NCBI GenBank assembly: GCA_013239625.1
Contig: MU053513.1
Location: 4,074,303-4,118,155 of the forward strand
DNA from: Lama guanicoe
Taxonomy: Eukaryota
Direction of reading: 5' to 3'
DNA: 43,853 nt
The notes under the pieces are model-generated. The model made no database searches. It worked only from the letters and a program-made list of their open reading frames with translations, and had not been told where the DNA came from. Every line of letters begins with the position of its first letter. Position 1 is the stretch's first letter. This document shows positions 10,701 to 39,885 of this stretch, piece by piece. Position numbers and translations under genes: made by a program.

Positions 10701-13700
10701 AGTTCCATTTTTAAATGTAAGACTCGACTCCTCCGTCTCTCCTCCCCCATCCCTCTCTGCTGCTACATCCAGGTTATGTTCTGCAGTGTCACCCCTATTC
10801 ATCTTGTTACTCGGGATCCTGTTACTTCCTGCCTGGACTGTGCAGCCAGAGCCTCCTCCTGCCCACCCCATCAATAAGCCATCCTACACGTCCTCCAGAA
10901 TAACCACCCTAAGGCTCTGACACCATCAAATTAGCACTATTGACAGGAAGCATCTATTAACTAAATTCAGCAAACATTTCAAACACTAGCCACTGTTCTC
11001 CTGTCAGACACTCAGAAAATAATGATCAGAAACTGTATTTGCCTTTGGGGAACTAAATATGATGTGTTAACTTTTAGTTCATTTATTGTTTATGATGAAT
11101 TCAATAAACATTTACTGGGTTTCGACTGTGAGCCAGACACTCTGTAAGGTTTTAGGGTAAAAGATACTTAGTATGCATGTGTGTGTTTGGTTGGTGAGGG
11201 GAAAGTCAGTCCTGTTTTCAACGTGACCATGTTCTAGTGGGGGAAAAAAGACATACATGCAATTAAATAATTGTAATTCAGCACAGTTCACATTTCTGTT
11301 TTGCACTGAGGCGTAAACTGTAATAATACTGGTAAGTGGTAACAAGAATCTGAACCAAGGAAATGGCTAAACGAGGCTGAGACAAAGATAAGAAAGATAT
11401 TAAGGAAAGGCTTTTCAGTTGGATGTGTTCAATAGGTCATTGGATAGATGGGCCCAGGACTCAGGAGAGATCTGGAAGGTCTGCCAGTATCTAGGGAATT
11501 AGCTGAAGCAGTGAGCCAGGGAGGGAATCCTGGAAAAAAATAGTATTTAACCAACAGGTAGAATAATAAGAGCAATCCAAAGGAAGCTAAGAAGCACCAC
11601 AAACAGGAAGGAGAGCAGCAAAGTGAGGGAACAGAAATTCTTACCAACAGGTTTATGAAAAAATGCTCAGTGTCACTAATCATCAGGGAAATGCAAATCA
11701 ATTATTGTTTAATTAGCATCGAGTTTCAGCTGGGAATAAAGAAAAGTTTCTGGAGATGAACAGCCGTGATAGTGGTGGCTGCATAGCAATGTGAATGCAC
11801 CTAATGCCAATGAACTGTACTATGGTTAGAATTACACATTTTATGTTATATATATTATACCACAAAAAAGAAAAGTGAAAAAGGGAAAAACCAACCATCA
11901 GAAATAGATCCATTTACTTTTTCACTCCAATTTGCCTTATTTTTATCAATACTTCACACCAATACATTTGGCCCTTTTATTTTACATTTTATTTAACATT
12001 TATTTTCTTAGTACACAGTTGGTGAGAAGAACATGGCTAATTTCATCCAACCCAAGTCAGATCTCTTATTAATAGCTGCAAAGGTGGCCCTCCTCTTATA
12101 ATTGGTAAACAGACTTCCCAACTTCGTATTTTTCACCTGGAAATCATTACATATGAAATCATCTGACTTTTCTAAGTAGGCTTGGGAATTGTCTTTTACG
12201 AAAGAGACCTCTCTTCTATTAAAATCATTTTACCTTTCGATTTTCACATTTCAAGAATATTTCTTGTTGCTGGAATGTTACTCATTAGGATTTCAACTTT
12301 TAAAACTTCTCTTATTATAGCTATAGAATTGTGAAACTTTGGTCCTATGACAAACCAATTTTAGTACTCAGTGTCTGATTGCAGAACTCATCACCTCCAG
12401 TGTTTATTATTTTTTCTCTTTTCAACATCAGAAGAGTAACTCTTTCTCTGCATTTGGTTGAGTGTACAGCTGTTTCCAAAGGAGCACCCTAATTTGCTCA
12501 CCCTTTCTGAATTCACATGTAATCTTCTAATCAGTATCTTAAGACACTTTTTATCCTTCTTTAATTTTTCACTGATTTTATATGATGAGCATGACTCTCT
12601 TGATAGCAGCATGCACACTATAATCTCAAAACATATTTTTCAGTCAAAAGATTTAAAGCATAATTTGATTTTATAGTTGGTGAACGTGGTTCAATTAACT
12701 TCACCAGGTGTATAGTTAGTTGATCTTGGGCTATATTTATAATCTTGTTGAAATTCAAGTAAGGAAACAGAGAAACCCATTTGTTATCTCCTACATTTCA
12801 GCCAGCAGTCTCACTAGAGCACTGTGTAACACTGTGTAAATGTAGTCAGCTTTTGGAATGGTACCAGTAAGTACCTACAACAGTGCAAACTCTGTAGTCG
12901 GGTGGAGTGGCTCTTCAGCTGTTTACCTGAAATCATCACTTTTTTTAGAATGTTTGCTCAAAGCACCTTGTGGCCAGGTAACCCCTCAGCTTTTTCCAGC
13001 CAGCGTTCTGCTGGAGGAGAAGCCCTGCTGCCCTCAGCCATCCACTGTACGTCATGAATGAACTTCTCTCCAATGTATCTAGATTGTACAGGTTCTACAG
13101 CACAGTTGGGAGAACTCAGAAGTAGTCACTTGAGTAATTTTGTTAATTCTGTGGTCAAATGAAGACGAGCCCTGGGTGAGAAAGCCTGGATGGTAGTGCT
13201 GATGTGATTACAGGTTTATCCTCCGTGTGAGTCAGTGAAGAAGCAGAAAGGCTATCCTGTCGCAAGAATCCATGACTGGCACTACACGTAGGCTGCCTCA
13301 CGTATACTGAAATTGTTCTCTGCGATAGGGATTTCCCCCACGTTAGATATAAAACAAAAAAGCCAAGAGAGTTGAGTAAGCTGTGGGGGAAGCTGGATTT
13401 GAACCCAGTTCTGTCTCTGGAGTCCAGTTCTGCCTCTTTCCAGGAAGCCACACTACTGCCGTTGGCACTTCTGGACTTCGCTGCTTCACGAACAATTCTT
13501 GATATTACAGAATTTTGAGCAGGCAAGTTAAGCAATAGGATTCCCTTACATTTTACAGACAGGAGGCTGGAGATGTGGAGAATGGCCTAGCAGAGAGATG
13601 CACCGGAAGCGCTCTACTATGAGAGCAGCTGAGAAGGCTCTGCAGTGGTCCGGGGGGAGGGCGTGGCAGGGAGGAGGGGAGAAAAGCAGGGCTCAGGAGC

Positions 13701-19700: not shown

Positions 19701-21223
19701 GAAAAAGTCCCAAGTCAGTTCAGGAGAAGTAGTCATTGTCTCCCAGTGGATGTGTGTGTTTGCGTTCAGGTGGAGGAGGGGAGGGTGGGGAGGTATGCCT
19801 CAGACATGCAAGGATGGGAGAAAACATTTCTGGAAAAACAAACATGAGCAAAGGCAAAGGCAGGTAGATACAAGAGGAAAAAGAGAATAGTTCAGTTTCA
19901 GTAAATAGATTAAGATGAAGACCCGTAGTGGAAAACAGAGCTGAAAGGTATACTGGTGTATTTCAGCACAGATGAGTGACATGCACAGAACTGTGCTTTA
20001 GAAAGGTGACTCTGTTAAATGTGTAACATGGTTTGGGGTAGAGAGACTGGTAGTCCAGTGCCCTGCTAGGAAACCACTGCAGAAATCCAGGGAAGATAGG
20101 GCAATGGAAATGGGGGAAGAGAGAGGGAACAAGCCAAGCAAGAGTGCCAGTGCTTAGGAGTCACTGGAAGCAATGTAAGAATGCAACCTGGGAGACCAGC
20201 GATGATCAGTGGGGGATCTGAAGAATGAGTTTATGAGTGCGCTGTCTTTCATGTTCTGAATTCAGTCCTAATGTTAAAGTTAACACAAAGCTAGCTTTTA
20301 TAGCATAATTAATATGGGTCAGACACGATGCTAAAGGTTTCAAAATTATCTTATTTCCTCCACATAAAACTCCTATGAAATGGACACTCTTTATTATCCT
20401 TAGTACATGGAACAGGGAGGGGCTGTTTCATTAGCTTTCCCTAAAGTCACAAAGCCAATTCCCGTATCTAGTTTAGAATCTGGCAGTATCACTCCAAAGC
20501 CTAAGGGTTGATCACTCTGACTGTATACTACCATACTCTTTCTCAGGTAATGTAAAAATTACCAGAGCTGTAATAACGGACTGGGCCACTAGGAGGCAGT
20601 AAACGCCCTATAACCATGGCGATCTTCCATAAAGTAGTTAACAATGATTTGGTAGAGCGGTAGAAGAGAAGACACCCACCTCGCCAGGCTGGAAAGTCTT
20701 TAAATTCCCTTAGTATTAAGGTGAAATACTCTAACCCTTGCAACTCAACATCATTCTCAGGCTAGTAGTTTCAGCGTCACTCAGGGCTTGTCAGAAATGC
20801 AGACTAGGCCCCACGCTAGACCTAAAGAATGAGAATCTGTACTTTAAAATATCTCCAAGTGATTAACAGACACATTGAAATTTTAGAAGCATTAGTCTAA
20901 GTTACCCTATCAGTTTCGCAGATAAAGAAACCGAGATCACCCATCACAAGAGGAAACACAGGCTGGGTTGGGATTGTATAGGGTGGGCATAGGGCTCCTG
21001 ATGTTGCAAACTACCGGGCAGGCGCTGGAAGGGCACCAAGGATCCTCACCCCGTCTAGGAGGATGATGCGGCCAGCGCAGGAACTGGTGGTGAAAAACTG
21101 TTCTCGACCATTCAGAAGCTGCACAAGCCCTACCACATCCTCGTCCACACTGCCCTTCCGGCTGAGATCCGCTTTGCTCAGACACTGCGCCTTCCATCTC
21201 CTGAATTCTGCGCTACGATCCAT
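7479..21223 (-). CDS. TYW3: tRNA wybutosine-synthesizing protein 3 (SAM-dependent methyltransferase); spliced CDS join(21223-21050,18630-18550,17195-17097,16879-16808,14519-14386,7707-7479), 789 nt, 262 aa
   Basis: Six GT-AG exons (174+81+99+72+134+229 nt) join in frame: [29 protein letters not shown]...[11 protein letters not shown]...DSGFRNSG...[12 protein letters not shown]...IFPEDY*. These are hallmark TYW3 motifs. The gene is head-to-head with CRYZ, as in other mammals. Confidence 0.97.
11644..11880 (+). mobile_element. L1MB-like fragment with an internal deletion
   Basis: ORF2-end motif aaaaatgctcagtgtcactaatcatcagggaaatgcaaatca joined to 3' UTR tail ...ttctggagatgaa...caatgtgaatgcacctaatgccaatgaactgtac... 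Confidence 0.75.
14386..14519 (-). CDS. TYW3: TYW3 coding exon 5 (134 nt)
   Basis: ctgcag|[47 protein letters not shown](R); donor AG|gtatat. Confidence 0.95.
16269..16472 (+). mobile_element. MER58A-like hAT-Charlie DNA transposon
   Basis: gggatcagcaaactttttctgtaaaaggatagacagtaagtatttt...acaactactcagttttgccgctgcagcac. Confidence 0.75.
16808..16879 (-). CDS. TYW3: TYW3 coding exon 4 (72 nt)
   Basis: ttacag|[27 protein letters not shown]; donor TTG|gtaaga. Confidence 0.95.
17097..17195 (-). CDS. TYW3: TYW3 coding exon 3 (99 nt)
   Basis: tttag|[36 protein letters not shown]; donor CTG|gtaaaa. Confidence 0.95.
17600..18100 (+). mobile_element. old ERVL-type LTR (LTR16-like)
   Basis: ttgattctggtgggactgtcaat...gctggcaactatctttcctgccac...agcacctgagccag resemble the LTR16 family; boundaries approximate. 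Confidence 0.45.
18550..18630 (-). CDS. TYW3: TYW3 coding exon 2 (81 nt)
   Basis: tttag|[30 protein letters not shown]; donor GTG|gtaagt. Confidence 0.95.
20290..20535 (-). mobile_element. MIR SINE
   Basis: ttatcttatttcctccacataaaactcctatgaa...ctaaagtcacaaagcca...tctggcagtatcactccaaagcc. Confidence 0.6.
20750..20898. mobile_element. MER5-like DNA transposon
   Basis: cttgtcagaaatgcagact...ccccacgctagacct...gaatctgtactttaa...ccaagtgatt...cacattgaaattttagaagcattagtcta. Confidence 0.65.
21050..21223 (-). CDS. TYW3: TYW3 coding exon 1 (174 nt)
   Basis: ATG at 21223; MDRSAEF...[14 protein letters not shown]; donor GGG|GTGAGG. Confidence 0.96.
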
Positions 21224-21369
21224 GCGACGAGGGGGCCAGGGTCTGCACTTCCCCGTTAGCCTCGCCTTTCCCTGGGCGCAGCCATGTTGAAGCCGGTGGT
21301 GGCCGCGAAAGTCCAAACTTCCTCGTGCCCGCCCCCGAAGGCGGGGCGGGGCGGAGCCTAGAAATCGCT

Positions 21370-21448
21370 GAGGTCGGTCTGGCGCGTCCCTTTTCCCCTG
21401 GAATCTGGGCGAGCCCTCGTAGATTTTGATTTTCCAGTCTAGAACCGG
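21370..21448 (+). other. CRYZ: CRYZ non-coding exon 1 (housekeeping promoter); 5' end approximate
   Basis: Consensus donor CGG|GTAAGT at 21448/21449, just downstream of the GC boxes. CRYZ is known to have a non-coding first exon. Confidence 0.75.
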
Positions 21449-22340
21449 GTAAGTGGTTTCGAAAAGCCCCCAGAGTTCAGGCAGGGGCCTCCCCACCGCT
21501 CGTCCAAAAGGAACCGAGCTGGATTTTGGCTGCGCTCCTGTTCTGCGTTCCCGTCCTCAACAAGAACTAGTGAATAAGGAGTTCGTGGCCGAAGTCCTTC
21601 CCCTCCAGGGAATGCAAGTTGATGGTCCGTAAATCCCCAGGGCAGTTTTACCTGCTAGTCCTAAGAGCTCGCTTTGCTGTCTAGCGGGGTCAGCGTTCCG
21701 GGTGCCACCGGGGCTCCGGTGGGTGCCTCCCCTCCCACCCGCTCCCCCGCCCCGCTGCCTGCCCCCGACTGGATTTCCCTGCGGCGGGGCCTGGGCCCCG
21801 GACCCCCGCCCACAGCCATCTGGAAGAGCCCATTTCTCCTTTCAGGTTCTTGCAGCTGCAGGGTTCCCAGGGCTCTTTCTGTCTGGCTTTGCTATCAGAG
21901 TTACCGTCTTACTTTGGGAGGGAAATGTAGATTTTTGTTTCACCTCCCCGCCCCACCTCCATGGTCCCCACCTAGAAGAATCTTCAAAAGAAAAAAATGA
22001 CAAAACACCCTGTTGACACATCGTTGGATATTTACACAGATCCTAAAGGAGACTTAATCTCCGTGACCAAGGAAGGTGTGTTAATGATTGAACCATTTAA
22101 AGGCTTAAGTTCGGACTGTTGTCCGCAGCTAGTGGAAGTGGCTATGTGATCCCCACCGAAGCCACTGGATCGCTGCGTGAGTGTCTGGTCAGCAGGAGTA
22201 AATCCCACCGAGCCCTGGTCACCCGACACTGGAGAGCCGCGTGACCAGTTCCATCCAACCTTTTTATCAGGGAACCTGGAGGGCTTTAGAATAACTATTC
22301 AACTCTTCCTCCGCCCCTTTTTATCAGAAGTGGGTGCTAA

Positions 22341-22500
22341 GGGGGGAGGGTATAGCTCAGTGATAGAGTACATGCTTAGCATGCACGAGGTCCTGGGTTC
22401 AAAACCCAGTACCTCCATTTAAAAAACAGGTAAATAAATAAACCTAAGTACCTACCCCCTTCAAAAATAAATAAAATAAAAATAAAATAAATAATTGTTT
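22341..22500 (+). mobile_element. camelid tRNA-Ala-derived SINE (vic-1 type), full length
   Basis: GGGGGGAGGGTATAGCTCAGTGATAGAG (A box)...CTTAGCATGCACGAGGTCCTGGGTTCAAAACCC (B box), A-rich tail, degenerate TSD AGAAGTGGGTGCTAAG / AGAGTGAGTACTAAG. Confidence 0.88.
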
Positions 22501-23479
22501 TGTTTAGAGTGAGTACTAAGATCCAGGCCATTGAAGGAACCTGACAAGGTAACACAACCAGGAAGAGACTTTTCTTTGGCCACTTTAAATTTAAAAATTT
22601 TTTTTCTGGGTTAAAGTAATAAATAATATACTTACACGAGCCATTCTTGATCAACAGCAACACATTTTGTAATGATTGATTCTCTTTCCAAGTTTTTTTT
22701 TCTTGCCAGAAATTCTTATTTAAGAATTGTTTAAGAATTTCCTACTAAAGAATGTCTTCTTTTCTCTCATAATGTGCCTTTGCATGTGAATTGATCTGTT
22801 CATTCTATGTTAAAATATATTTCCAACATTTCCCCTATCCCTTTTGATTTTCATTTAAACCAAGTGATTTCAGGTGTATCTTGGAAAAGATGACTGTTTG
22901 AAGAAGAATTTTAAATTCCGTATTTCCTTCATTTGCAAAAGATGGTTGGCAACATTTCATAGGTAAAAAGTAAAACCAAACATTAAAGCTAGGTCCTCCA
23001 AACAATTCTTTAAAGGTTATATTTGATAAATAGAAAAACCTATTTGAAGTACAGCTTAATTAAAAAACACAAACAGTGTGCCAAGCCTGCTGCTGACTGC
23101 AAATGCTGTACTCTGAATAACAGAGCTTACAGCCTGCCAGTGCCGGCATGCTCTGAAGCCCTCGCCATGTGCTGCTGCAACTCATCTTCACAAGGATCCT
23201 GTGCTGGGGAGTAGTGGCCCCATTTTACAGATAAGGAGATTATTAGTTTTCCTAACAGAATTTGCATCCTGTGTTTCTCTGGTAGATCCCTTAACTTACG
23301 GACATTTGAAACATTTCAAACTCAAACAGTTACCTAAATCATAAAATATGTAATGCTACCTGCAGATGTGTTGAATTTCATATTTCTAGCTCAGTCTGTC
23401 TCACTATCATCATTATAAATTCTATCTCTAAGAAATTAGAGGTCCTTTATGCCAACATTTCAAAGGATGAGATGAAAGG

Positions 23480-23620
23480 GATTGTATAGTAAAGGAAAAA
23501 AATACCTAACGACGTTTAAGGTGTCAGACTTGGGTTCCAACTCTGCTTCAGTGTGACCCTGGTGAGTGTCTTAATCCCTTGAATGTTTCCTCATCCATAA
23601 AATGGATGGTGATTTTACTT
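23480..23620 (+). mobile_element. MIR SINE
   Basis: gtcagacttgggttccaactctgc...tgtgaccctggtgagtgtcttaatc...gtttcctcatccataaaatgg. Confidence 0.7.
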
Positions 23621-24639
23621 CCACTTCTGCATACAATTAAACAGTGGTTTTAATAACTGTTGCTTCTTTACCTATTGTGAAAATTATGACAGTGGATGTG
23701 AAAGATACACTTTTTAGAGGAAATCGGGTAGTTCAGGGGTTCAGGAATGATCATAATTTTTTGTGTGTTGTGTTAATTTATTCTTTTTATTATTTTTTTA
23801 AATATTGCACCTGTAATATGAAGCAGATGATGGTCCTGTGGGTACCTGGGGTTCAAGGCAATGAGTGCAGATTGGAGCCTGATCAGTCATAGTGGCAAAG
23901 GCTTGGTTGGAAATAAGAGCCCTAGAAGCAAAATAGAAGAGAGCTGTGAAGGGCACGCTCCATTTCCTTAGAGTCTTAGTAGGACGAGGTGTGGTACTGG
24001 GCAGGGCAGCGGGTTCTCCTAAAGCCAGGATTAAGGATGAGTCTCCTCCTTCCTTTGTTCTTTTCTCCCAATTTAGCAAATGTCAAAATGCGACGGAAAA
24101 AATGTATGTGCTAGATATTTTTGACAGATCCTATTTCAAGGTAATTTTGCCTTTATTATTGCTACAGTTTTTTGAGGATAATAGTGATGTCTTGTGGTGA
24201 AAAGATAGATGCAAGAGCTTGAAAGAAATAAATAGGTAGGAAGTAGTTAGATATTGAAAATGGGCAAAGACCTCCTCCTCTTATCTGGTGCCTGTGGGGG
24301 AGGTGGGCGCACAGAGTGAGCAGGAGCTGGGGAGGGGCTGGGCTGGTTCCCCTGGCCCTCTGTGCCCTCTAGTTCTGCACAGTGACCTCAGAGTTAATGT
24401 TCCAAAAATACATGTTGAATGAATAACAAACTAGTGTTTGGTATTAGTGTTTTGTTTAAATGATTCTCTGGACTGTGAACTCTTTGAGGCTAAAGACTTG
24501 GTTTCATAATCAGTGTCCTGCAAATGTGTTAAATTAAATCAAAGATGATTGTAGAATTACAGAACCAAGAATATTTTAATGAGTAAGAAATTGGAAAGGA
24601 GAAAGGAGATGGGAGAGGAGTTGTGAGATCACTATATAT

Positions 24640-24840
24640 AGGAGTAGATATTTGCCAGGTGCCGTGTCTGATACTTGCCCTGTCTCTGGCACAGTAACCC
24701 CGAGTGGGAACTCAGTTTTCAGATGAAGAGGCTCAAAAAAGTTGACTGCCTTGCCCAAGGCGGCTAGTAAGTGATAGATCTGGGATTCATGCTGAGAGCT
24801 GTCAGATTCCAAAACCCACACTCTTTCCACAACACCATGC
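24640..24840 (-). mobile_element. MIR SINE
   Basis: ttttcagatgaagaggctca...ccttgcccaagg...ctagtaagtgatagatctgggattc...cagattccaaaacccacactcttt. Confidence 0.75.
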
Positions 24841-26043
24841 TAAAGACAAAAAAAGAAAGAAAAACTGGTGTTCTTATTTTCAGTATGGAAAAGTCTGACC
24901 TAGGCAACCTTTTCTATTTCTGTTTTATTTTCTTTGTATTTTCACTTTCTTGTCTAAGCAATACTCAGCTTGAGCCGAGACCCAAATAGAAATGCAGTAG
25001 TGAGACCGCTGGGCAGGTAGGCGTGATGGGAGCTGCTCTTTTCCTGGTCCTGGGGCTTCTCACCCCGGGGACTGCTCAGCTGCTCTGCTGTGCAGTGTGC
25101 TTTCTGCCTGCTTCTGCCCACTTTCCTAATAAGAAAGCTGCCCTTCAGGTTATATCATTGCTAAACAACCTTTTAGCAGTGGAGAGTTTACTTTCTTCTC
25201 TGTGCTAGGTACTGTATTAAATATTTTAAATAAAGATTTTTTAATGACACAATTTTTGATGAACTCTATCATGAACTTCCCATTAATGACACCATCAAAG
25301 TGCTTTGATCCCCCCACACACATGGAAGGCCATTTTATAGTTAGCCTGGGCTCCGTTCTGAGCAGTCCAGTGTTGAGCTTCAATACAATAAAAGTCTGAA
25401 TTCTTTCATCTCAAGTCCTAGTTTCTGCAATTCTTTTTGATATTTCAGCTGCTCGTGGCTGGTGAATATGATTATTCCAGAAGTTAGCAAAGATGTTCTT
25501 GGTGGTGGCAAAGTCCAGCAATGTTTGCTTTGCTTAATTTCAAGAAATTGGGATAGTGCCCAAATAAAGTTATGGATATCACTCGGAACCCTTTCGTTAC
25601 ATTACAGAAGATTTCTAAAGTTATCTGATTCTATATTTAAATGTTCTTTACCTTTTCTTAGAGTTTATTTTAACTCAAAGTTTTCTTTTCATTGTACTAT
25701 TAGCCATGGTAGGAGAGAAAGCTGAACTGTAAATTCCCCTTGTGATTTACAGATTATTCAAAGCAGTGTATTTAGTCTCTAATGCTTTTCTTCCTTTGTT
25801 AAAATGCATGAGCTTCATAAAGCCAAGTGTTTCAACAATGATAAATCTCTAAAACCTAATGCGGAGAGGAAAAAGGAAGTTGCAGGATTCAGCACAATGT
25901 GACCTGATCTAGATAAAGCCTGAAAACCTGCAGAACAATAGCACACATTGTTTGCTAATGCAGACGCATGTGGGCAGTGGCATTACATCGTGCCTGAGAG
26001 GGATGAGCACTGAGTGTATAGAACAGTCAGCTCTTAAAAGCGT

Positions 26044-26087
26044 GGGACAGAAGTGGGTTTGGGGACAGAACTGGGTTTGGGGACGGG
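26044..26087 (+). repeat. 18-bp tandem duplication, G-tract rich
   Basis: gggacagaagtgggtttg gggacagaactgggtttg gggacggg. Confidence 0.85.
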
Positions 26088-26215
26088 CGCAGGAGGCTTC
26101 AGTTACATTTGTGTTTTAGGTTTTTACAGTGTTTGAAGATTTGTTAAAGCTGAGTGGCAGGTAAATGTTTATTATATTCTTTATTCTCTTTCTCTGTTTG
26201 AAATATTACATAATC
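26085..26215 (+). mobile_element. ancient L1ME-like 3' end fragment
   Basis: ggaggcttcagttacattt...ttaaagctgagtggcaggtaaatgtttattatattcttt...tgtttgaaatattacataat. Confidence 0.55.
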
Positions 26216-26618
26216 TAACAAAAGAAGATCTATTTATCTAAGAAAACTTACATTTCTTAACATTAGATAACATGTAGCTCCTAAAATTGCCAAGATGTTG
26301 CAGCCCAAGCTTATACAAAAGGAAATGTAAGATATTGTATCATGCTATGTCTATCCAGATGGTTTTGTTTGTATATTTGATTGCCTTGTTGAAGGCACTG
26401 AATCTCTGCAGGAAGTAAAATGAAGTATTTTGCTTTGTAGCTGAAGGATTTGTAAGATGAAAGGTCCTTAAACATGAAATGAGATCAGTGGTAAGCTCAT
26501 GATTTAAATTGTTGTTTGAGAAATTGTTTGATCTTCCCCTCCAGGGTAAAAAACATCCTGATAGCCTAGATACAATATGACAATACATTAACTTTTTTTT
26601 CTTAGTATCTAGATCACT

Positions 26619-26729
26619 ATGGCAACTGGACAGAGGTTGATGAGAGCGATTCGAGTTTCTGAATTTGGTGGACCAGAAGTGCTGAAACTCCAGTCGGATG
26701 TTGCTGTACCGATTCCAGAAGAACATCAG
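26619..26729 (+). CDS. CRYZ: CRYZ exon 2, coding part (exon starts at 26606 with 13 nt of UTR)
   Basis: ttttcttag|[54 protein letters not shown]; donor CAG|gtggaa. Confidence 0.96.
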
Positions 26730-29700
26730 GTGGAAATCATTACTTAAAAACAGGCAGTAATTACACTGAGTCTGAGTCTCTAGCACATCAAGTTAGTGTT
26801 CAAAGGAAGCAGACTCACACTGATTTATAAAGACGTTGAATTAGGACAGTGTTTACACTGTTTTCATCTGTAAGCGCTGACAAAGATGACATCTTCCTAA
26901 TTAGTGAAGTGAATGTATGAAAAGGAATAACTGCTTATAAGAAAATTTTTGCAGTAGAGAATCATCTATGCAGTGTAGTAATCGGATTTTCCTGAATGGA
27001 GTCACAGTAGTTTTGAACAAGTTATTCTATCACAAACTTTCATGATCTTTATTTTGTACATGGTGGGAAAACCATTTTCTTCTGTAGACATGCTTTGTCA
27101 TACATGAGAGAATTTGAATGTAGAGTTTCTGTATTAATTGAGGGCAAATTAACTTCCATAGTAGATGGAGCCTCAAAATCTCAGCAGTTCAACCGTAGAA
27201 AATCATTTCTCATTCCCTGAATTCCAAAAGTCTAAAATGTCGGTGGATACTCCAGCAGATTTAGGGACCCAGGCATCTTCCATCATGTGTCTGTTGCCTT
27301 CAGCTCCTTGCTTCTGGGGTCTCTGTAAAAGGGTGGGAACACCATGTGCGTTGCCTGGGAAGGTCTCTGGGCCAGGCGTGAAGGTAGCCCGCCTCCCTTC
27401 TGTTCATGTTCCACCGGCTGGAACGCAGTCATCCGGCTGCTCATAACCGTGAAGGAGCAACAACGAGGGCGTGGTCTTCCTCCATACCCAGGAGGAGGAG
27501 GAGACAGGTCTGAGGAGCACATAGAGGTCTCTGCCACACACCCCCTCAGACATGTTGCCACCACTATTTTCCCCAAGTGTTTTTAATAGAGCACATAAGC
27601 CATTCTGTCTTACTTATATATGTTGGTTTGTTAACACTGGAATGTGAGCTCATTGAAGGCAAGATTTTTCTCTCCGGGTTTACAGGTCCCAGGGTCACTG
27701 CAGGCCTAGCATAGTGCTGAGTGAGTGTCTAAATGCTCTGTGTGAACTCAAGTACACTGTCGTTGCAGGTTCTAATCAAAGTGCAAGCCTGTGGTGTGAA
27801 CCCAGTGGACACATACATTCGCTCTGGTACTTACAGTAGGAAGCCGCGCCTCCCCTATACTCCTGGTTTAGATGTGGCTGGGCTGATAGAAGCTGTTGGA
27901 GAGCGTGTATCTGCTTTCAAGGTATTACATTTTTCATTTTGTCTCTTTTGGCTTAGTATATATTTTGTTAAACATTTTAGCATAGCTTTAAAATACGTCT
28001 GTATTTGTCTTTAAAAGGCCCATTACACAATTTGTGCCACTGGGGGGCTCCTCTAGTCAAAAAAGAAATTACCTTTTATCCAGAGGCCTTGCTTGTTTGC
28101 ATTGTTGGGGGTCAGTCCTGGGTAATTTCTGCATCTTCACATCTGCTTAGAATTGAACTGTGATCCTTTGATTTCACAGAAATGTGGAAGGAAAAAGAAC
28201 AAGCAAGGAAACTGTACTATTTCCTAACCTGGTAGTGCACAGCCAACATACATTTTTATTTTTATATAAATTTAGCTTCACGGAATAAAGGGAAGGCTAA
28301 TTCTTTTGAATAATAAGTAAAAGATGAAAAAATGTGAGGTCAACTATACATTTTTAGAGCTATGACTCAGACCAAGGTGACTGAGTCAATGAAAACGTTA
28401 TGATCCGGGCTTGTGTTATTTATGTGCCGAACCACATAAACAACGGAGATTGTATATTCACATTCTGGCATCTTTCCTCGTCGTTCCTTGACCTGCTCAA
28501 CTTTGGCAGCACATTTACCAAAATTGGACTGAGACGGAGAAGATGAACGTGGCCCCTGCCCAGGAAGACGGGCGAATTCCTGCGGCTTTCCTCTCCTCCG
28601 CCCGCGGCAATCTGGCTTCTGCCCCCTGCGCTCCGTGGAAACGAGGCTTGTTAATGTCGCTAATGGCCTCTGTATTGCTGGAGTTAATGGGCCCTTTTAT
28701 GTCATTATCTCTCTTGACTTCTCTGTGACACTTGACACTCAGCCACTTACTTTTTCTTAAAAAAAAAACTTTTCCTTCAGCTTCTGTGACCTCATTTTCC
28801 CCCATTCTCTCGCCTCCTTCCTCTCTGGGCACCCTTTCTTTTTTTTCTCTGGATGCGCCTCACATCTTGGTGTTGCTGTGCACACCGTGCCTAATTAGAC
28901 TCTGCGTTTTAGATTCTACACCTTCTTCGTGATGGTCTCGTCCCCGTGGTTTCCATTGTCACCATGATACTAAGTATCACTAGATATTTAGACTCTTCTA
29001 AGCTCTGGACCTGTGCTGTCCAGTGAAGTAGCCACTAGCCGCGCATGGCTATTTAAAATTCAAATTCAATTGAAATTAAAAACTCAGTTCCTCAGTCATG
29101 CTAGCAACACCTCAGGTGCTTAACAGACCCATGTATCTGGTGGCTGCCCCACTGGACAGTGCAGATGTGGAGCGCCAGCCTCACCACACAGAGCTGCGCT
29201 GGACAGCACGGGACCCACGCAGTCCGTCTCCAGGGACCTCTGACTCCCTGTGTCCAAAACTGAGCCTCTCTTTTTCTCACCTCAGATCTGCTGCTGTCTC
29301 CTGTGACTGCCTCGGTGACATCTGGGGTTTGAGGCTCATCTCGTCACTCTCCCTCGCCCAGCTCTCCCTTTCTAGGACTGCGTCCTGCCCCCTCCCCTCC
29401 TCACTGCCTGTAGCTGAGTTCAGGTTCTCTTCCACAGCCTCTCGCCTGGATTTCGGCGACAGACACTCACCTTTCCACCCGCCCTCCTTCCCCCTCGAGT
29501 TTGTTCTTGCTCTATAAGCAGTGATTTTCTCAAGTGTAATTCTGATTTTCACACCTCTCTTTTAGTTCTTGCGTTAATTCCTTGTAGATTTCTGGGTGTT
29601 GTTGAGACCGCTCCTGTTATGAAGGAAGAGTGTTTTGCGCACTCTCTCCCACCTCTCTCTCCATCCTTATCTCCCATCCCCTCTCAACTTGTGGGTTATT

Positions 29701-32700
29701 CTTTAGTAATAACTGTTAGTTCTTCCCTTGCACATCCTATGCTCCTTCATATCTGTGTCTTTGTTCGTATTGGTTCTTCTTGGCAGAATTAAACTGAAAC
29801 TTATAAACATAGATTCAAGGGATTTTATCCTCCAGCTTTAATTTCTTTTCATTTTATCTCTTGAAACTATTACAGTCCACGCATCAGGCCACTTACTCAT
29901 CGGGAGTGAACGCCAGTGATCTCTCAGCACTTCTTCCTGCCACTGTTCCTTTTCTCCCTTTCGTTCCTTTGCCCAGCTTTAGTTTTCAGAATCTTGTCCC
30001 GTCCTGCAAGGCCTGCCTCAGATGCTAGCTTCTCAGTGAGGCTATTCTTGATGCTTTCAGCTTAGAAACAATTCCTTTCCTTCTACCTATCTTTGATGCT
30101 TCTTCATCTTTGCCTTGCTTTGTAATTATTCCTGTCCTTCTCTTCTCTCTCCTGGAGTTTAAGAAGCTTGAGATTAGGGAGAGTGTCTTGCTACAAATAT
30201 CCACCACGGAACTCAAAGTACTGCTTTCCACAGAGGAGTCTTAGAACACATTTGAGTTATATTGAAATCACTGCAACGTGTTTTTAAGCTGTAAAAACAG
30301 GATTAATCTTAACACAGTCACATTTGACGACTTGCAGGCCATGCCGTTAAACAGGGATGGTTGTCTTTGACTCCTAGATGCCTTATGAATCTTTCTTATC
30401 TTTACCCCACCACATCGTGTTTTATTGTAGGACAAATTTAAGTATATGGAGAGTTGCTGTCTTAATGTTTTGCTTATTCCAAGGAATATCCACTTTTCTT
30501 TTTTCACGGAGGAGCTGGAGGAGGTGTCTGTGTTGGGCGGCCTAACTTCCCTAGCGCACAGGCACATCGGGCAGGCCTGTGGTGCCGGTGTGGTGACTTC
30601 CCTCCCTCAGCTGCACATCTGCTTTTCAATAGCAAGGACCCAGCAGACGTTTACTAGAGTTTGTTGTGTTGCTGGTGCGGGGATGAGCGAAGATGCCTGT
30701 CCTGGCTGATCTTTGCTGTCAGGATTGGGGCAGAATGGCCTGCTTTTTGGTGTATGCATGAAAAGTGAGAGACATGCAGGAAGAAATCTGTGGAAAGGAT
30801 TTAGAACAGGTGTTTGGTGTGTGGAAGAAACCTTACATTATATTTCTTTTCCCTAGTACTTTAGACCAAAAAAAAAAAGAAAAATGTTCTATATTAACTG
30901 CCATTTACTAACTGCTTGATCTGAGCCAATTACTGAACTTGCTTGTGCCTCATCTGTATAGTGGGATTATCTAAGGGAGATAATAGAAGTTCCAACCTCA
31001 GAGGCTGTCGTGAAGATAAATCAGGTAGTAGGAGGCATAACTGCCTCGCCTGCCCGGCAAGCCCTCGGGGGAGGTTAGGCTCCGTCGGCAGGTTCTCTCT
31101 TTTCTTGTTTTCCCCCCTTCCCTTGATTTTTTCTTCTTACTAGTTCCCATTAATAAAACACTTAAAAATGTTCAGTGTTTTGAAATAATTCTTATGAGAC
31201 CTTACAATGCATACATAAAACCATACATAAATACGTATTTCTTGTTCTAAAGGTTGCACTATAAAGAATGGTGCCCATGTGGACATCATTTCTAATCCCT
31301 GAAGCATTTACCGCCTTACTGCTCTCCCCAGAAAGGTGACAGAGTCTTCACCACCAGCACGGTCTCGGGCGGCTATGCCGAGTACGCGCTGGCCGCCGAT
31401 CACACTGTTTACAAGCTGCCGGAGAAGCTGGACTTCCAGCAAGGAGCTGCCATCGGCGTCCCGTACTTCACGGCCTATCGCGCTCTGCTCCACAGGTAAT
31501 GACCCACTCGGTCAGCTTTATAACCAGCGCCAGAGGAGGGCAGTGTCAGTTAGCGGAGGATAGTATATAATTTATTATCCTTCGTGCTACCTGTCCATCC
31601 ATCTGTCAGTCATTTTTGGTTACCATTCAGTTACCGTTAAGCATTATGGAGTAGAAACGGTTCTAATTTGGGAGATTGTTCTAATCACCGAAGATACAAA
31701 GAAGAGCAGAACACTGTCTTCACCTTCAAAGTGCTCACAGTCTAGCAAGGGTAATAATGTTGATGTATGATGTGGACAGGACAGTGGAAGAGATGTGCAT
31801 AGGGGCTTATGGGGTTGCAAGGGATGTGGCTGTGGGGATGAGGTAGAGCTTCCTTACACGATGTAAGACTTGCATTATTTTAAAGCCGTGGTTCAAAAAT
31901 CTTGTTATTCGGCTGTAGAAGCTAATTGCTGCAAGGTGGAAAGTACAGCACAGGGCTCTACCCTAGACGCGCTGGTCGGATTCCATGGCTGGTTTCTGTA
32001 CTTTCATTGAATTCTCTAGGTATCTGCAGAGGATCAGAGGGGGTTGTCTTGGGGAGTCAGCTGGGAGTGGGGAGGGCATCCTAGACAATGGGAATTGCTG
32101 GTGTCGGTGGGGAGTGTGATACCTGAGGAGAGCTCTGGCAGTTTGGTTTTGTTGGATAGAAGATTTCAAGGCAAAGAGTGAAGAATAAGGTTGGCGCGTA
32201 GTAATCTCTCAAGAACTGTTAGCTGTCATTGTCAAGTAGGTGGGCTGCAGGTTGTAACACGCTGGATTATAGAGCTCACACGTTGTTCTGTAAGGGATTG
32301 GGGGTCATGAAATGTTTAATGTAGGAGAGTGATAGTGTCGTATTTGTGTTTTCTTAAGGCCATCTGCTGCCTTGTGGAGGATGGATTTGATGGCAGGAAT
32401 GGGGAAGGAGATGGGAGGGTCCTACAGAAGTACCCTCTAGGCCAGAGACTTAAGGGCCAGGGTAAGGGTCATGGGAGAAGAGGTGGAGTGGAGAGGGCAA
32501 ATATTTAGGGAGCAAACCCAGAACTGCTTGGTGACTGCATGTGGAGAGTGAGGAAGAGGAAGAGCTTTAAGAATACTTACAGCAACGTGGGTGATGTTTA
32601 CCTTGACAAAGAGAAGGAGGAAGAAGTTTCACAGGGAAACTGGACGTGAATCTAAGACATGGTAGTGAATCTAAGACATCCAGCTCCCTGTTAGATGAGA

Positions 32701-35700
32701 GTCTGGTGCTTGAAGGTTGGAGATCCCAAGTGGATCCCAAGGCCAGGAGAGTCTAGCGGTCGTGGTGTCTGTTGAACATCTGTTAAACTCATGGGCACTG
32801 AAGACAGGAGACCTGGGTTGGAGTACCACCTTCCCCAGCTACTGCCCAAGTTACTTTCCTGTCTCAGCTGTAGTTTACTGATCTGAAAAACATGGATAAG
32901 AACAGCACGTACCTCATAGGGATGTGGTGGGAATTACTGAGGTCATGCACGTAAAGCTCTTGTCTGAGCCTGGCACAGGGAAGTGCTCAGTCACTGTGGA
33001 CAGTGCCCGGGGGTCGTGGTGATGTTGCTACTGAGGAGGAAAGCTAGTTGTCACTTGCATCAGTGAGGTCTGTTTGGGAAAAAAAAAAATAGCAGTTGGG
33101 CTTAGCAATTTGGAGGTCATTGGTGGCTTTTGTCAGATCATTTTCAGTAGAGTGGTGAACTTGAGGGAGTGGATTGAGGAAGGAAAAGGAAATGTGTTCT
33201 TTTAGAGGGGGCGGCAGTTCGGTTTATTTATTTATTTTTTGATGGAGGTACTTGGGGATTGAACCCAGGCCCTTGTGCATGCTAAGCATGCGCTATATCC
33301 TTCCCCTGGAAATTGATTCTTGAATGGAGACAACCCTTAAACAGTGGGGGAGATGGGAAGGAGTGGCTGGAAGAGTACTTGAGGAGAGTGTGGGAACAAA
33401 AGGGTGTTTTTAAGGATGGACAGGACTTGGGCATTTTTGTAGCTGAGAGAGGATCTAGCAGAGAGGGGGGGATAGAAGGTTTGGAAGCAAGGGCGGAGTG
33501 GCGGACGGAACAGGATCCTGCAAAGGCAAGAGGCAGAGGGCTCAGGACCTACGTAGAAAGACTGGCTTCAGACAACGAAAGGAGAGCTTATCTGTTAAAC
33601 CTGGAAGAGGTGAAGACGGTATAATTATGGAAAGTTTGTGGGTTGGGAGGTGTGGGGTCGAGGGAACGCAGATGTGATTGCCTCACTTTTCATAGTTAAA
33701 GAGGAGGCAAAGAGATCTTCTGAGAGTCGGAATGGGAGTGGCAACAAAATGCATGGTCGTGTGATTTTTTTCTATAGCACTCAGCCATTTGGATAAATTA
33801 TCAAGGAAGTTAGACTTTCATATTGATTCAGGGCTGGAATATTACTGGCAAAATGAAATAGTGCAAAAGAAATGAGAGTGCTGGAGACAGGGAGGGAGAG
33901 AGGTCGGGGCAGTGTGCCGTGGGGCGCGGGCTGGTTGGGAAGGGCATGGGGCCAGGAGGGTGAGAGGGCAGAAACAGGGCCATCGGGAGACAGTGACCTC
34001 TGGGACGTGGAAGGAAAGTTTTGAGGAAATATGGGCTTAGAGTCAGGACAGGAGATTACTGTCATAATATTAGTCATCAGTGTCTGACAGTGGAATGGTT
34101 GGGGGTGGTTACCAGGTGGAGCCCGGGGAGAGAGCGGTAAAAGTGGGGGAGAATCCAGGAATTGTGCTGCGAGGTTGTCGTCTGTGCATGTGGGAGTCTC
34201 CAGGCTGGGGCTGGTTTGAGGGTGGAAGAGAAAGCCTGCGGGCTGGGTCCCAGTCTTGGGTGACAGGAGAGGGTACTCCAGCAGCACAGGAGGCCGGGCC
34301 AGATGCCCGACGGCTGCCCTGAGTCCCAGGGGGAGGTGACAGTCACGGTTCTCTGGAGAAACAGAACCAACAGAAGGTGTGCATTGATGGACTGCACAAT
34401 GGTGTGCTCGGTGAGTGTAAAATCTGAGGGGATAGACCGGCAGGATGGAGAGCCCAAGAGGAGTTGTGGTCAATTTACTGGCAGAATCCCTTCTTGCTCC
34501 AAGAGTCCATCTTTGTTCTATTAAGGCCTTCAACTGATTGGATGAGGCCCATCCACATTATCCACTATTCTCAAAGTCTACTGACTTAAATGTTCATCTT
34601 ATCCAGAAAGCACCTTCATCCAGAAAGCTTGACCCATATCTGGCACCATGGCCCAGCCAGGTTCACATAAAATTAGCCATCACAGTGACTCTACCCAAGG
34701 ATAGAGGCATCGTAGCCGAGGCAACTGGGGAGAGGGTTAGTCAGCTTCTTCTCCACCCACTGCAGGCCCAGGGGTTTAGGAGAATGTGCTTAGTGTTTGA
34801 AGGGTCATTTTAGATTTGAAAAAAAAAATCATTAGGAGGAAGTATTTTCTATTCCATAGGCTACCATTAGTGGTCCTGTTCCTTACATGTGTATTTTACT
34901 TTTTTAATTGTCAGTGTTTTGGTAATAGCTATCACAGCTGATCATTCCAAATCCTGTTTAACTCATTGCCATCTACCCCCACCTCCATGCAAGTGTGTTG
35001 GAGAAACTCTGTTTCCTCACTCACAATGGGCAGTTGTCAGCTGTTGGCACCCAGCCTTGCGCGGGACCCCAGGTGACTGTGTTCTCACTCCCACATTGAG
35101 CGTAATGTCCATCCAGGGTGGCCACCCCTGCCCATCCTAGTCAGTAAGGATCCTCCCTGAGAGTAACACCTGGATCACACAGCCTCTGCCGGCTTGTGCC
35201 ACCAGCACTGGTCCATCTGGAATGACGCAGCTTCCCCTCTCTGCTGGCTGCACGTTCCTTGTTTTCAGTGTAATAGAAAAGTCGTCGTGTGAACCAGAGG
35301 TAAAAAGGATATGTCATTTACCAGAGGCTCTGGACATTTCAGGGGTGACAGGGGAACCTGGGTGACAGGATTTACTGTATTTCTCACTCTCTTACCATCG
35401 CTAACTCAGCGCTGCTTTCTGAAATGAGGCTTCGAGGCTGTGCAGCCAGATGCTCAAAGGCATGGGGAAGGAAAAGGGGAGCTGCTGTACCTACCTGGGT
35501 GTGACTCTGGAGCACGGAGTGAAGACTGAGCTGTGATAACCCTGTTTTGAGACACTTTCTGGGTGAATGAATGAGAGACTCCAGTTCCTCTAGGTTAAGC
35601 AATTCCACTTCATGTACCTACGAGCCCTCTTAGAAGGTGGCACCAGAGTGTGGGCCTGGCATCCAGCACGATGCCTGGCTCCTAACAGACTCCCAGTAAA

Positions 35701-38700
35701 CATTTTTGAATGAATAAATGAATTGAAGGTTTTCTTCGCTCTATGGCTCTGACGAACCATTGTTTGATCCTGTGGTGCTTACAGAATATCTTGGGTTGTA
35801 TGGCAGAATGGGATTCCTCTCTGGGGAAGTGTTAGCTGAACTGAGGGTAGAATTTCCTTAAGGAGTATGACAAACATCGAGCTTAATTAGCTCTAGAGTA
35901 AGGTGACGAACCTATGCTCTCTTTCAGTGCCTGCGCGAAAGCTGGAGAAAGTGTTCTGGTTCACGGAGCTAGTGGAGGAGTAAGTATTTTATTTTTAAGT
36001 TTATTTTTTAAAGAGCTTACATTTTTGGGTTTCATACTATATTTCTTTAAGTTGTTTTTAAAAGCCAAATTTATAAATATAGTCAAGGATGCTTTTTTTC
36101 TTTTTGTAGTGAAGCTTCTTTAAATTCTGTCTTCTGAAGGTGATTCCTCGTCATTAGCATTTCTTGGTTAATAAATCCAACAGATTACCCCATCAAAAGG
36201 GTATATATTAGGTTTTCCACCTGGGTTGGGTGTGGACCAAGATAAGCCGGCTTTGTTTTTCTCTCCAAGTAGCCAATGTTCTCAGAATATTTATTTAGAA
36301 TTTTAAGCAGTTCTTTAAGGTTCATATAAACTCCATATTCCCTTAGATAAGGAAACTAAGGCTCATTAAAGCTTTACCTCCGTTGCCTCAGACAGCGCTG
36401 TGAAGCCGCACTGTGAGTTCTCGTCCTTCCTAGCTCCCTTCCGCCGCTCGCCTGCTGCGCTTTGATGACAGTTCGTGGAGTGCACAGTATACGACTGTGT
36501 CCTTAACACCACAACCCACAGCTTAAAATGCTAATAGGGGATTGGGGGTGGTGAGGGGACTCAGAACTTATAAAATCAGCCCTTCGGTGAAATCACCCAG
36601 CGCAGGGCTGTCAGAAAACCTCTTCGAGAAACTGGCTGTCAATCCACCTCTGAGGAGCTTAGAGGAAAATTTAGAGCTCTGAGGTTGGAATTTAACAAGA
36701 AATCCACATGACCTCTATCCTGCACGCAGAGGCTTTAGAAATTTTGGAGACAAGAGTTCGCTTTTTTAAAATGCAGGGCCTGGGGCTGGATGGCTTACCT
36801 GAGGAAGCTGGTTAACCCTTTCAGAGCCCTGTGCATCCAGAGAGTAGATGAGAAGAACTAACCTATTAACGGCACGTTGTCCCTGGAATAATGAGAGGCA
36901 TCCTGAAAACTGAATTTACCTCTACAGGTGGCCAGATAATGCAAGCAGAGAATTCAGACTCCTGTGTTCGTTACTTTACATGGATGAATATGAAACCAGA
37001 CAGCTTTCACACCAGCTTCCTGTGTAGCTCCAACAGACCAATTCTGAGGGGATGCCACAGATCAGGGTATTTACTGAGAAATACCAAGATTATCTTTATG
37101 GGGCTTGAGAAAATGTGACAGATACACCTTGTCAGAAACTCCTACTGTTTAGCTTCACAGAAAAGGCTATTTTGGGGTTAAATTTAATTTAACCCTAAAT
37201 AACTAAAAGATCTGTCAAACATGCATTTATTTAAATTGCTTTGGCTTTCAGAGAGCTAACCTCGTGCTTTGTATCAAAGGGAGAGATTTCAGTAGGAAGG
37301 GGAGAGAGGAGTTGAAAGGAAATCTCTTTTTATTCCCTTTACCCTCTGGTAAAAAGCCGGGTCGCTTCACCATAATTTTTTTCAAAATGCAAAATCCACA
37401 CTATTCTCTGCTGGCTGAGTTTGTTAAATCCTTGGCTGGCGGGGATAGGCTGGCGACCTGGTGTGTGAAGCGCTTCTGATCCTCTCTGCCCTATGGAAGG
37501 GAAACAGTCCTGGGTTTTGTCTTGCTTCTGTTGGTACTTTCCGCCCTCATTTGAATCACATTCCTTTGGGATTATGTTGTGTATTTAAAATGGTGTGGAA
37601 TTTATGGACACAGCTATTATCCAGATATGTTGGTGGGGAGTGCCCAATTTTAGTGTCAGCGGAATAAAGAGGGGAAAAAATAGTTGACACGTAACGGTAT
37701 GTAATCTATTGAAGGAATAGTGTTAGTATAATTGTTGACAAAAATAGAATAAACAGCGCCTTTTAAATAGTATTGAGTGCCCCCTTAAAGTAGTCAGTGC
37801 ATAAAGAGATACATTTACATTAACTCTTAGGTTGAAATGCGGTTTTATTAGAGCCCTCCCCTCCCCTTTTTAAACTGAAAATTAAAGTAGCAAAAATCAG
37901 TTGTGCCAACCCTGCAGTGTATTGTTACTCCGTGGAACTGAGTGCCTCTCTCATTTAGTAGACAGTGAATTCCATGTGTTTGGTTGAATCAAACAAATCC
38001 TCACCATAACCCAGCTGGGTTCAGGCTCATCGCTCCCATACGCCATACAGTCTTTCAGGTCTATTTCCAGCCTGGGAGTCTGTGATTCTGTTGCAATTTT
38101 AATTAGTTTCTGTCATCATTTTTCATTCTGATTCATTTCTATCACACCCAATCCATAATGATTTTACTTTCCCTTAAATCAGTGGTAATCAACAAGGGGT
38201 GACTTTCTATCATCTCTCCTCCCTGTTGGGGACATTTGACGTTGTCTGGGGACATTTTTGGCCGTCACAACTGGAGTAAGGGGTCTGGTGTCCCATGGAC
38301 AGAAACTGGGCATGCTGCTAAACATCCTTCAATGCATAGAGTAGCCCCCACAGCGAAGTGTTACCCAGCTTAACAGTGCCAGGTTTTGAGAAAGCTTGCT
38401 CTAAATGTATGTGACACTCATCTGTGCTATTCGTTTGGCATGTGATCAAACGCATATTTCCTAGTTTTGCAACTTAAGTAATTGCTTTTATCTATATTCC
38501 TAAAATAGTTCTATTTCTCCTTTATACTAAGCACATTTATCTAGTGATCCAGTGAATTCATCCAATCCTGTGGCTGTAAATACCATCTCTAACTGATGAA
38601 TTGCAAATTCATGTTTCCACTCCTGAACTCCTTCAAGCCCATACCCACATTCAGCTGATGACTGAGCAGCTTCAGCTAAGTGAGCAGCCTGCAGCTCAGC

Positions 38701-39844
38701 GTGTTCAAGTCAATTCCTGATGCGCTCGCAGACTTGATCCTCTCGAATCTTCCTCATCTCCGTTAATCTGGTCAAAGACCCTCCCCTTTCCCTCACCCCC
38801 CACCCTCAATCTCTGACAAAGGCCTGGTTTTTCTGTTCCCATTTTCCCCCACCTTCTTTTTGCCTCTCATGTAATTGGAGTGTTCTTTTAAAAGCCTAAT
38901 TCAGATTACACCACTCTCTTGCTAAAACCCTCCAGTAGTTCTGCATTAGCTCTTAAATATGATCCAGAGCCTCCAAGGCCCTGTGTGCCTCTGCCTCTCT
39001 GCCCTTCTGGCCTCATCTTCTCTCACGCACGCCGCACGCCGCACGCCCCACCCTCCACCCTCTAGGCGCCTTTCTGACTGAACGCCCGAGGCTCACGCCC
39101 GCCTCTCCGGGTCCATGACCACTCTGCCCACAGCCTTCTCCAGACCTCCACGCGCTTGTCCCGCACTTTGTCCCAGTGCCGTCTCCTCAGAGTGGCCTGG
39201 CCCTTCCTGATGACTAACTGGGCCCCTTTTCTGTCTCTTTATAACCGCGTAGGCTGTTTTATTTTTTTCAAGTACTTTTCATTTTCCCAATTTACTTTAT
39301 TCATTGATTTGTTCACGTGTTGATTATCTTCCCCCTTCCATAGACTGTTTCTTGCATGAAGAACCATGTCTAGCATGTAGTAAACAATAAATGTTCATCA
39401 TATTAATGAACAAATTAATTTGCCCATGTCTGTACCTGTCTTTTCCACTTAAATGGTAGAGGCCTTATGTTTACTGTATAGTATTTTATATGTACAGTTA
39501 GAGTATAAGTCAGCATATTTGGATCATCTTGAAACCCCATGTCTTCTGCATACAGCAGATGCTAAGTAAACATCTAGTGCACTGGCTGCCAACTCAAGCT
39601 TTCCAGTCTGACCTGGTCCAGCTCCTGTTTCCATCTATATGGGTTTCTGTTTCCTCATCTGTGGACCAGAGACAGTAACACTGTCTGTCTACTTCATATT
39701 ATTGTGAGGAGGAAATGAAGCAATCCATAGAAAAGTATTTAGTGTGATACCGGGCGTATCATAAATGCTCAACAAAAATTAGCTATCATTCTTCTTATTT
39801 CTTTGTTTAGACTCTTAAATTTCTTGATAATAAGCCAGGACCAA

Positions 39845-39885
<41 letters not shown>

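Follow-up and report, generated by a model that had tools for sequence, protein, structure and literature searches.

The window, by which we mean the whole stretch of 43,853 nucleotides analyzed here, is the TYW3-CRYZ locus, in which the plus strand carries CRYZ. The coding sequence of CRYZ, spread over eight exons from 26619 to 42370, gives a protein of 330 amino acids, and exons 2 and 4 match the human quinone oxidoreductase 1yb5. With regard to both gene and lineage, the premise of a preliminary description of this DNA, namely that it carries a camelid CRYZ, holds: the protein is identical to that of Vicugna pacos (XP_006217168.1/XP_006217169.1) at 330 of 330 positions, and it shares 327/330 positions with Camelus and 322/330 with the llama lens zeta-crystallin Q28452. 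By these figures the lineage is a New World camelid. The Q28452 sequence, a Swiss-Prot entry, is further from the CRYZ of the window (8 differences) than Camelus is (3). Several of its eight deviating residues are adjacent (119-120, 172-174, 204-205), and they are possibly errors in an old cDNA. For alpaca, and likewise for the Bactrian camel, RefSeq lists an identical protein under two consecutive accessions, a pairing that would fit, as an indirect sign, two UTR variants.

TYW3 exon 1 extends on the minus strand from 21223, which is also the position of the TYW3 start codon, and the CpG observed/expected ratio at 21001-21500 is 0.76. TYW3 and CRYZ are arranged head-to-head on one CpG island (21050-21448). 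The strongest splice donor in 21300-26610 is that at 21448/21449, where the housekeeping first exon of CRYZ ends. Between this exon and exon 2 of the camelid CRYZ lie the candidate promoter and first exon that are the subject of this analysis. The two flanking exons are as follows.

21397..21448, plus strand: 3' part of the CRYZ housekeeping first exon, placed by its donor, the CpG island, the TYW3 neighbour and the match to the CRYZ-like protein P0096 (see below)
26606..26729, plus strand: CRYZ exon 2, with the start codon at 26619; common to either first exon

The elements of the candidate itself, within intron 1, are these.

25834..25840, plus strand: Sox-type site 1, AACAATG, at about -213 from the inferred start at 26047; putative binding site
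25881..25894, no strand assigned: MARE-like element TGCAGGATTCAGCA, a perfect TCAGCA half-site with a distal TGC; putative binding site
25894..25899, plus strand: Sox-type site 2, ACAATG, which abuts the Maf half-site and forms its 5' flank on the minus strand
25934..25952, no strand assigned: inverted Sox pair AACAAT-N7-ATTGTT
25953..25970, plus strand: TGCTAA, a possible imperfect second Maf half-site adjoining Sox-type site 4, followed by ACGCATG
26017..26023, plus strand: TATA-like box TATAGAA, with one mismatch to TATAWAW
26044..26084, plus strand: 18-bp tandem duplication, 2.3 copies at 95%, from a tandem repeat scan
26047..26160, plus strand: candidate non-coding first exon of about 114 nt, ATG-free, its presumed 5' end placed 30 nt downstream of the TATA-like box
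26097..26129, plus strand: pair of acceptor-like AGs (ends at 26119 and 26129), with 11/17 pyrimidines each
26140..26215, plus strand: possible likeness, in sense orientation, to an old L1M-type 3' terminus
26158..26166, plus strand: candidate splice donor CAG/GTAAAT at 26160/26161, from its sequence and donor score

Every motif that the preliminary description had named is present at the position it had given. The motifs, their spacing and their uniqueness are direct observations; factor binding, the start site, splicing and lens specificity are inferred. AACAAT at 25934 and CATTGTT at 25946, which had been presented as an inverted pair, contain an exact one (AACAAT/ATTGTT) with 7 nt between its halves, and the overlap claimed for the MARE-like site and the Sox motif ACAATG at 25894 amounts to one common base. 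The four Sox hexamers of that description, all within 120 bp, were matched in density by 12/2000 dinucleotide shuffles of intron 1; when the plain ACAAT core was counted instead, the same density was reached in 114/2000. A second cluster of four ACAAT/ATTGT cores, which lacks a Maf half-site, is found at 26508-26590, just 5' of exon 2.

According to the passages we cite, a MARE consists of a TGCTGA half-site with a TGC flank, or of a half-site with a 5' AT-rich flank (PMC9903618). The predicted element at 25881-25894 has the half-site together with the TGC flank. Its perfect Maf half-site occupies 25889-25894, and the 5' flank of this half-site is just moderately AT-rich. Within the window the 14-mer is the sole TGC...GCA pattern with a perfect half-site, bare half-sites numbering 22. 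The TGCT that follows Sox-type site 4 may be read as a second, imperfect Maf half-site.

The preliminary description had also suggested a loose likeness to the DC5 enhancer of chicken delta1-crystallin, a target of Sox2 and Pax6, and this suggestion did not stand. The 7-nt Sox site of the candidate is identical to that of the DC5 oligonucleotide in the cited part of the source (PMC4330359), but downstream of it only 4/18 bases match in register. Relative to DC5, TTGCT is displaced by -2 and CATG by +1; the candidate's Pax half-site is out of register, and a DC5-type composite was not found. In DC5, as far as the cited part extends, Sox2/Pax6 spacing is rigid, a change of -1/-2 leading to competitive binding and one of +1 to about 30-fold less cooperativity (PMC4330359).

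Pax6 sites were scored against the P6CON consensus as it is given in the cited portion of PMC2612750. No Pax6 consensus was found in 25800-26030, where the best site has 5/16 mismatches to P6CON, and 273 sites across the window do as well or better. Intron 1 has a single Pax-like core, ACGCATG at 25964, which deviates from P6CON at 6/16 positions. Natural Pax6 sites are often degenerate. As judged from these scores, Pax6 binding at the candidate appears unsupported. Since there is no Pax6 consensus, and the spacing rule of DC5 fails as well, the regulatory logic looks like one of Sox and Maf.

There is no ATG between 26004 and 26164, in agreement with the ATG-free stretch that had been described, and freedom from ATG is in itself ordinary, as 937/5043 intron 114-mers have none. 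The start of exon 2 at 26606 was confirmed, and the donor therefore lies 445 nt before exon 2, as had been claimed; the predicted splice would remove an intron of this length. On an approximate matrix, the donor at 26160/26161 scores 9.19, compared with 4.3-8.4 for all seven coding-exon donors, and among the GT sites of intron 1 two score above it and one equals it on the same approximate scale. The duplication at 26044-26084, which sits at the presumed transcription start, has the highest score of the 15 tandem rows in 21000-26300, and its high identity suggests that it is recent. Neither this duplication nor the pair of acceptor-like AGs had been mentioned in the preliminary description.

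A second CRYZ-like copy (P0090-P0094, P0096), about 92% identical and with a full-length frame, occurs on other contigs in alpaca, dromedary, Bactrian camel and wild camel. The 5' extension of this copy agrees with a junction of housekeeping exon 1 and exon 2, and for this reason the copy is probably a retrocopy, one probably older than the split between Old and New World camelids. The 39-residue N-terminal extension of the alpaca sequence P0096 was considered as support for the candidate junction and was rejected, because it fits housekeeping exon 1 better. Over 5 codons the candidate junction accommodates the extension best of 301 intron GT sites, and by 16 codons it ranks 40th-equal or worse. 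When a 10-residue piece of the extension was compared without gaps, the one best match lay in housekeeping exon 1 (21397). When frameshifts were allowed for, the score was 23.0 for exon 1 (2nd of 309 GT sites), 15.5 for the candidate (outside the top 12) and 7.0 for unspliced sequence; the top score of 25.5 belongs to a weak donor (24693) and lies close to the tail expected by chance (maximum 23.5 among 600 other GT sites). In search of orthologous DNA from mammals that did not recruit CRYZ, metagenome contigs were scanned for a non-human mammalian CRYZ exon 2 pattern, with 0 matches.

The preliminary description had further placed the donor in an L1ME-like fragment and proposed that the exon was exapted from a LINE. 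We are somewhat more inclined than not to take the segment 26140-26215 for an old L1M 3' terminus. Even if accepted, it would comprise the donor and about 20 of the roughly 114 exon bases, with the promoter excluded. The proposal was thus overstated, and no tool lent it support. Downstream of TYW3 there are three segments that we take to be old L1-like 3' ends (1-460, 1500-1730, 11640-11885), one of which has a weak LINE-1 ORF2 match (E 0.1). A search with nhmmer gave no significant second copy of the fragment in the window; the best non-self match (E 1.9) falls on one of these three ends, in the same orientation. In comparison of the fragment with the three putative ends, equally good scores came from shuffled queries in 264, 55 and 103 of 500 cases, and two pattern scans of the sequence collection for the fragment returned 0 matches.

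Other repeats were also noted. Two copies of a tRNA-derived SINE, 79% identical to each other, lie at 22346-22466 and 33200-33299, and the tail of the former carries the donor-like 9-mer CAGGTAAAT (22427), the same as in the candidate exon. Rfam, applied to 21000-26300, returned just a tRNA-like match at 22346-22417 and one chance match. A bacterial promoter scan found nothing, and it is not relevant to this locus.

Textbooks cite zeta-crystallin as an example of gene sharing and of one enzyme being recruited repeatedly. Gonzalez et al. in 1995 (Mol Biol Evol 12:773) reportedly described its independent recruitment in camelids, and are said to have placed the lens promoter in intron 1, upstream of exon 2, with the protein unchanged. 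That llama promoter shares gene and lineage with our candidate and, as reported, would share its intron-1 position; the candidate is probably the published camelid lens promoter. Since such a promoter has already been published, locating it is a rediscovery. In the literature searched, with the primary paper of 1995 outside the searchable text, neither the position nor the sequence of the llama promoter turned up in print, and we found no mention of the Sox/Maf anatomy, the 18-bp duplication or an L1 contribution. The existence of a camelid CRYZ lens promoter is already known, while its anatomy may be unpublished.

Two further systems invite comparison. In the portions of the reports cited, camels and the guinea pig have zeta-crystallin as a crystallin, and in the guinea pig an alternative lens promoter of the Pax6/Maf type is used (PMC3554465, PMC2605723). 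The guinea pig promoter is likewise an alternative promoter of the same enzyme gene with a Maf-type element; it differs in that it uses Pax6, whereas the candidate has no Pax6 consensus and has four Sox-type sites instead. c-Maf and Sox1 are named as key crystallin factors in the cited section of another report (PMC5737492). The proximal promoters of mammalian gamma-crystallins, with Sox1, c-Maf and TATA, are like the candidate in that a Sox site abuts a Maf half-site upstream of the TATA box. They are ancient and conserved, whereas the candidate is intronic and is proposed to be lineage-specific. We presume that the Sox-Maf junction of the candidate is also closely similar to these promoters in sequence; a printed gamma-crystallin promoter sequence was not found in the literature searched.

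The preliminary description had put this location forward as the best candidate in intron 1, and our results favor this view. We defined a composite as a TATA-like box with a Maf half-site and a Sox site no more than 200 nt upstream and a strong donor 60-400 nt downstream, and this composite occurs once on both strands of the 43.9-kb window. Under six settings, loosest first, it appeared in 42, 7, 2, 0, 0 and 0 of 1000 intron shuffles, rates that are optimistic and flatter the site since the settings were picked post hoc, with the site already known. Intron 1 contains four pairs of a TATA-like box and a donor. Only the candidate yields an ATG-free exon. In the 250 nt upstream, it is also the only pair with a Maf half-site, accompanied by four Sox cores; the other three lack such a half-site there and come with upstream ATGs (3, 5 and 7). 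The location is therefore the best candidate in intron 1, and a statistically unusual one. It could nonetheless be argued that the motifs have clustered by chance in an AT-rich intron and that another part of intron 1 holds the published lens promoter, TATAAAT 23414 with the donor at 23561 being one example. The frequency of the composite at its loosest setting, the second four-core Sox cluster from 26508, and the pair 23414/23561 itself all speak for this explanation: the latter has a perfect TATA, compared with the imperfect one of the candidate, and the strongest donor within intron 1 lies 147 nt downstream of it, in what we take to be a MIR-like stretch. We consider the explanation unlikely, however, as that pair has three upstream ATGs and neither a Sox core nor a Maf half-site within 250 nt upstream, and as the tighter composites arose in just 0-7/1000 shuffles and are found nowhere else in the real window.

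Another view would accept that an alternative promoter with its first exon is real and deny that it is lens-specific; transcription would be Sox-driven and would also take place in other epithelia or in the gonad, with the lens amplifying or merely sharing it. The inverted Sox pair is compatible with this, because SoxE dimers also read that layout, and so is the missing site for Pax6, to which the guinea pig promoter owes its restriction. RNA data were also consulted. Among the 24 runs listed, 13 contain part of 25960-26180, and none of the 24 is labelled eye or lens. Of 23 words taken from this stretch, nine RNA or guessed-RNA runs from three studies contain 0.35-0.52; four of these nine are recorded as RNA and belong to one study with the label reproductive system metagenome, and four unclassified runs of one study contain 0.87-1.00 of the words. 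The predicted fraction is 0.44-0.53 for an exon of 114-131 nt, 0.01-0.06 for a cassette of 31-41 nt and 0.53 for a 2%-diverged relative at full coverage. Since the observed fractions fit the exon and such a relative equally, they were counted neither for nor against any reading; if the RNA runs do contain the candidate exon, it would be expressed outside the lens, given that the four recorded RNA runs are labelled reproductive system. The adjacency of Maf and Sox sites and the TATA box, on the other hand, suit crystallin promoters, and the CRYZ-like copy, which must derive from germline mRNA, favors exon 1. A promoter of this broader kind seems to us improbable. We give even less credence to the possibility that the Sox/Maf cluster acts as an enhancer in the lens, or belongs to a promoter with a first exon that has its end at another place, and that 26120/26130-26160 is at most a 5' UTR cassette exon spliced from exon 1. 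The pyrimidine content of the two acceptor-like AGs inside the proposed exon is no lower than that of some genuine acceptors of CRYZ, which span 9-17 of 17, and this would allow a cassette exon of 41 or 31 nt, and intron 1 has further strong donors. Against it, the TATA-like box is at promoter distance from the cluster and yields an ATG-free exon, whereas the other TATA-donor pairs carry 3-7 upstream ATGs.

Taken together, we find it reasonably probable that the candidate provides camelid CRYZ, and thus zeta-crystallin, with an alternative promoter of lens type and a first exon that is non-coding. Under the mechanism we propose, SoxB1 proteins in lens fibre cells would bind and bend the DNA at the four sites from -213 to -101, and a large-Maf dimer (c-Maf) would occupy the TCAGCA half-site at about -166, beside Sox site 2. 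Together these proteins would recruit TBP to TATAGAA at -30, and transcription would start near 26045-26050 (at about 26047), within the 18-bp duplication. The ATG-free exon of about 114 nt would then be spliced from 26160 to exon 2 at 26606, so that a protein identical to the housekeeping enzyme would be made at crystallin level. The element appears to have arisen within the intron through point changes together with a small duplication, and the donor may stem from the old L1 end. Our boldest proposal, which we advance with considerable doubt, is that camelid zeta-crystallin follows a Pax6-independent, gamma-crystallin-like Sox and Maf code unlike that of the guinea pig, formed de novo within intron 1; the 18-bp duplication at the start would then be fresh, and the donor would have matured from an ancient L1 3' end that is silent in other mammals.

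A separate intronic promoter would presumably let CRYZ rise in the lens without raising its head-to-head neighbour TYW3. If our boldest proposal is true, two recruitments of one gene would have followed distinct regulatory paths, and their steps could be dated by aligning camelids with pig, cattle and whale. Should the promoter indeed work with Sox and Maf, without Pax6, and take its donor from the end of a LINE, it would provide a compact model (about 330 bp) of how a promoter and exon, strong and tissue-specific, can be born from intron DNA.
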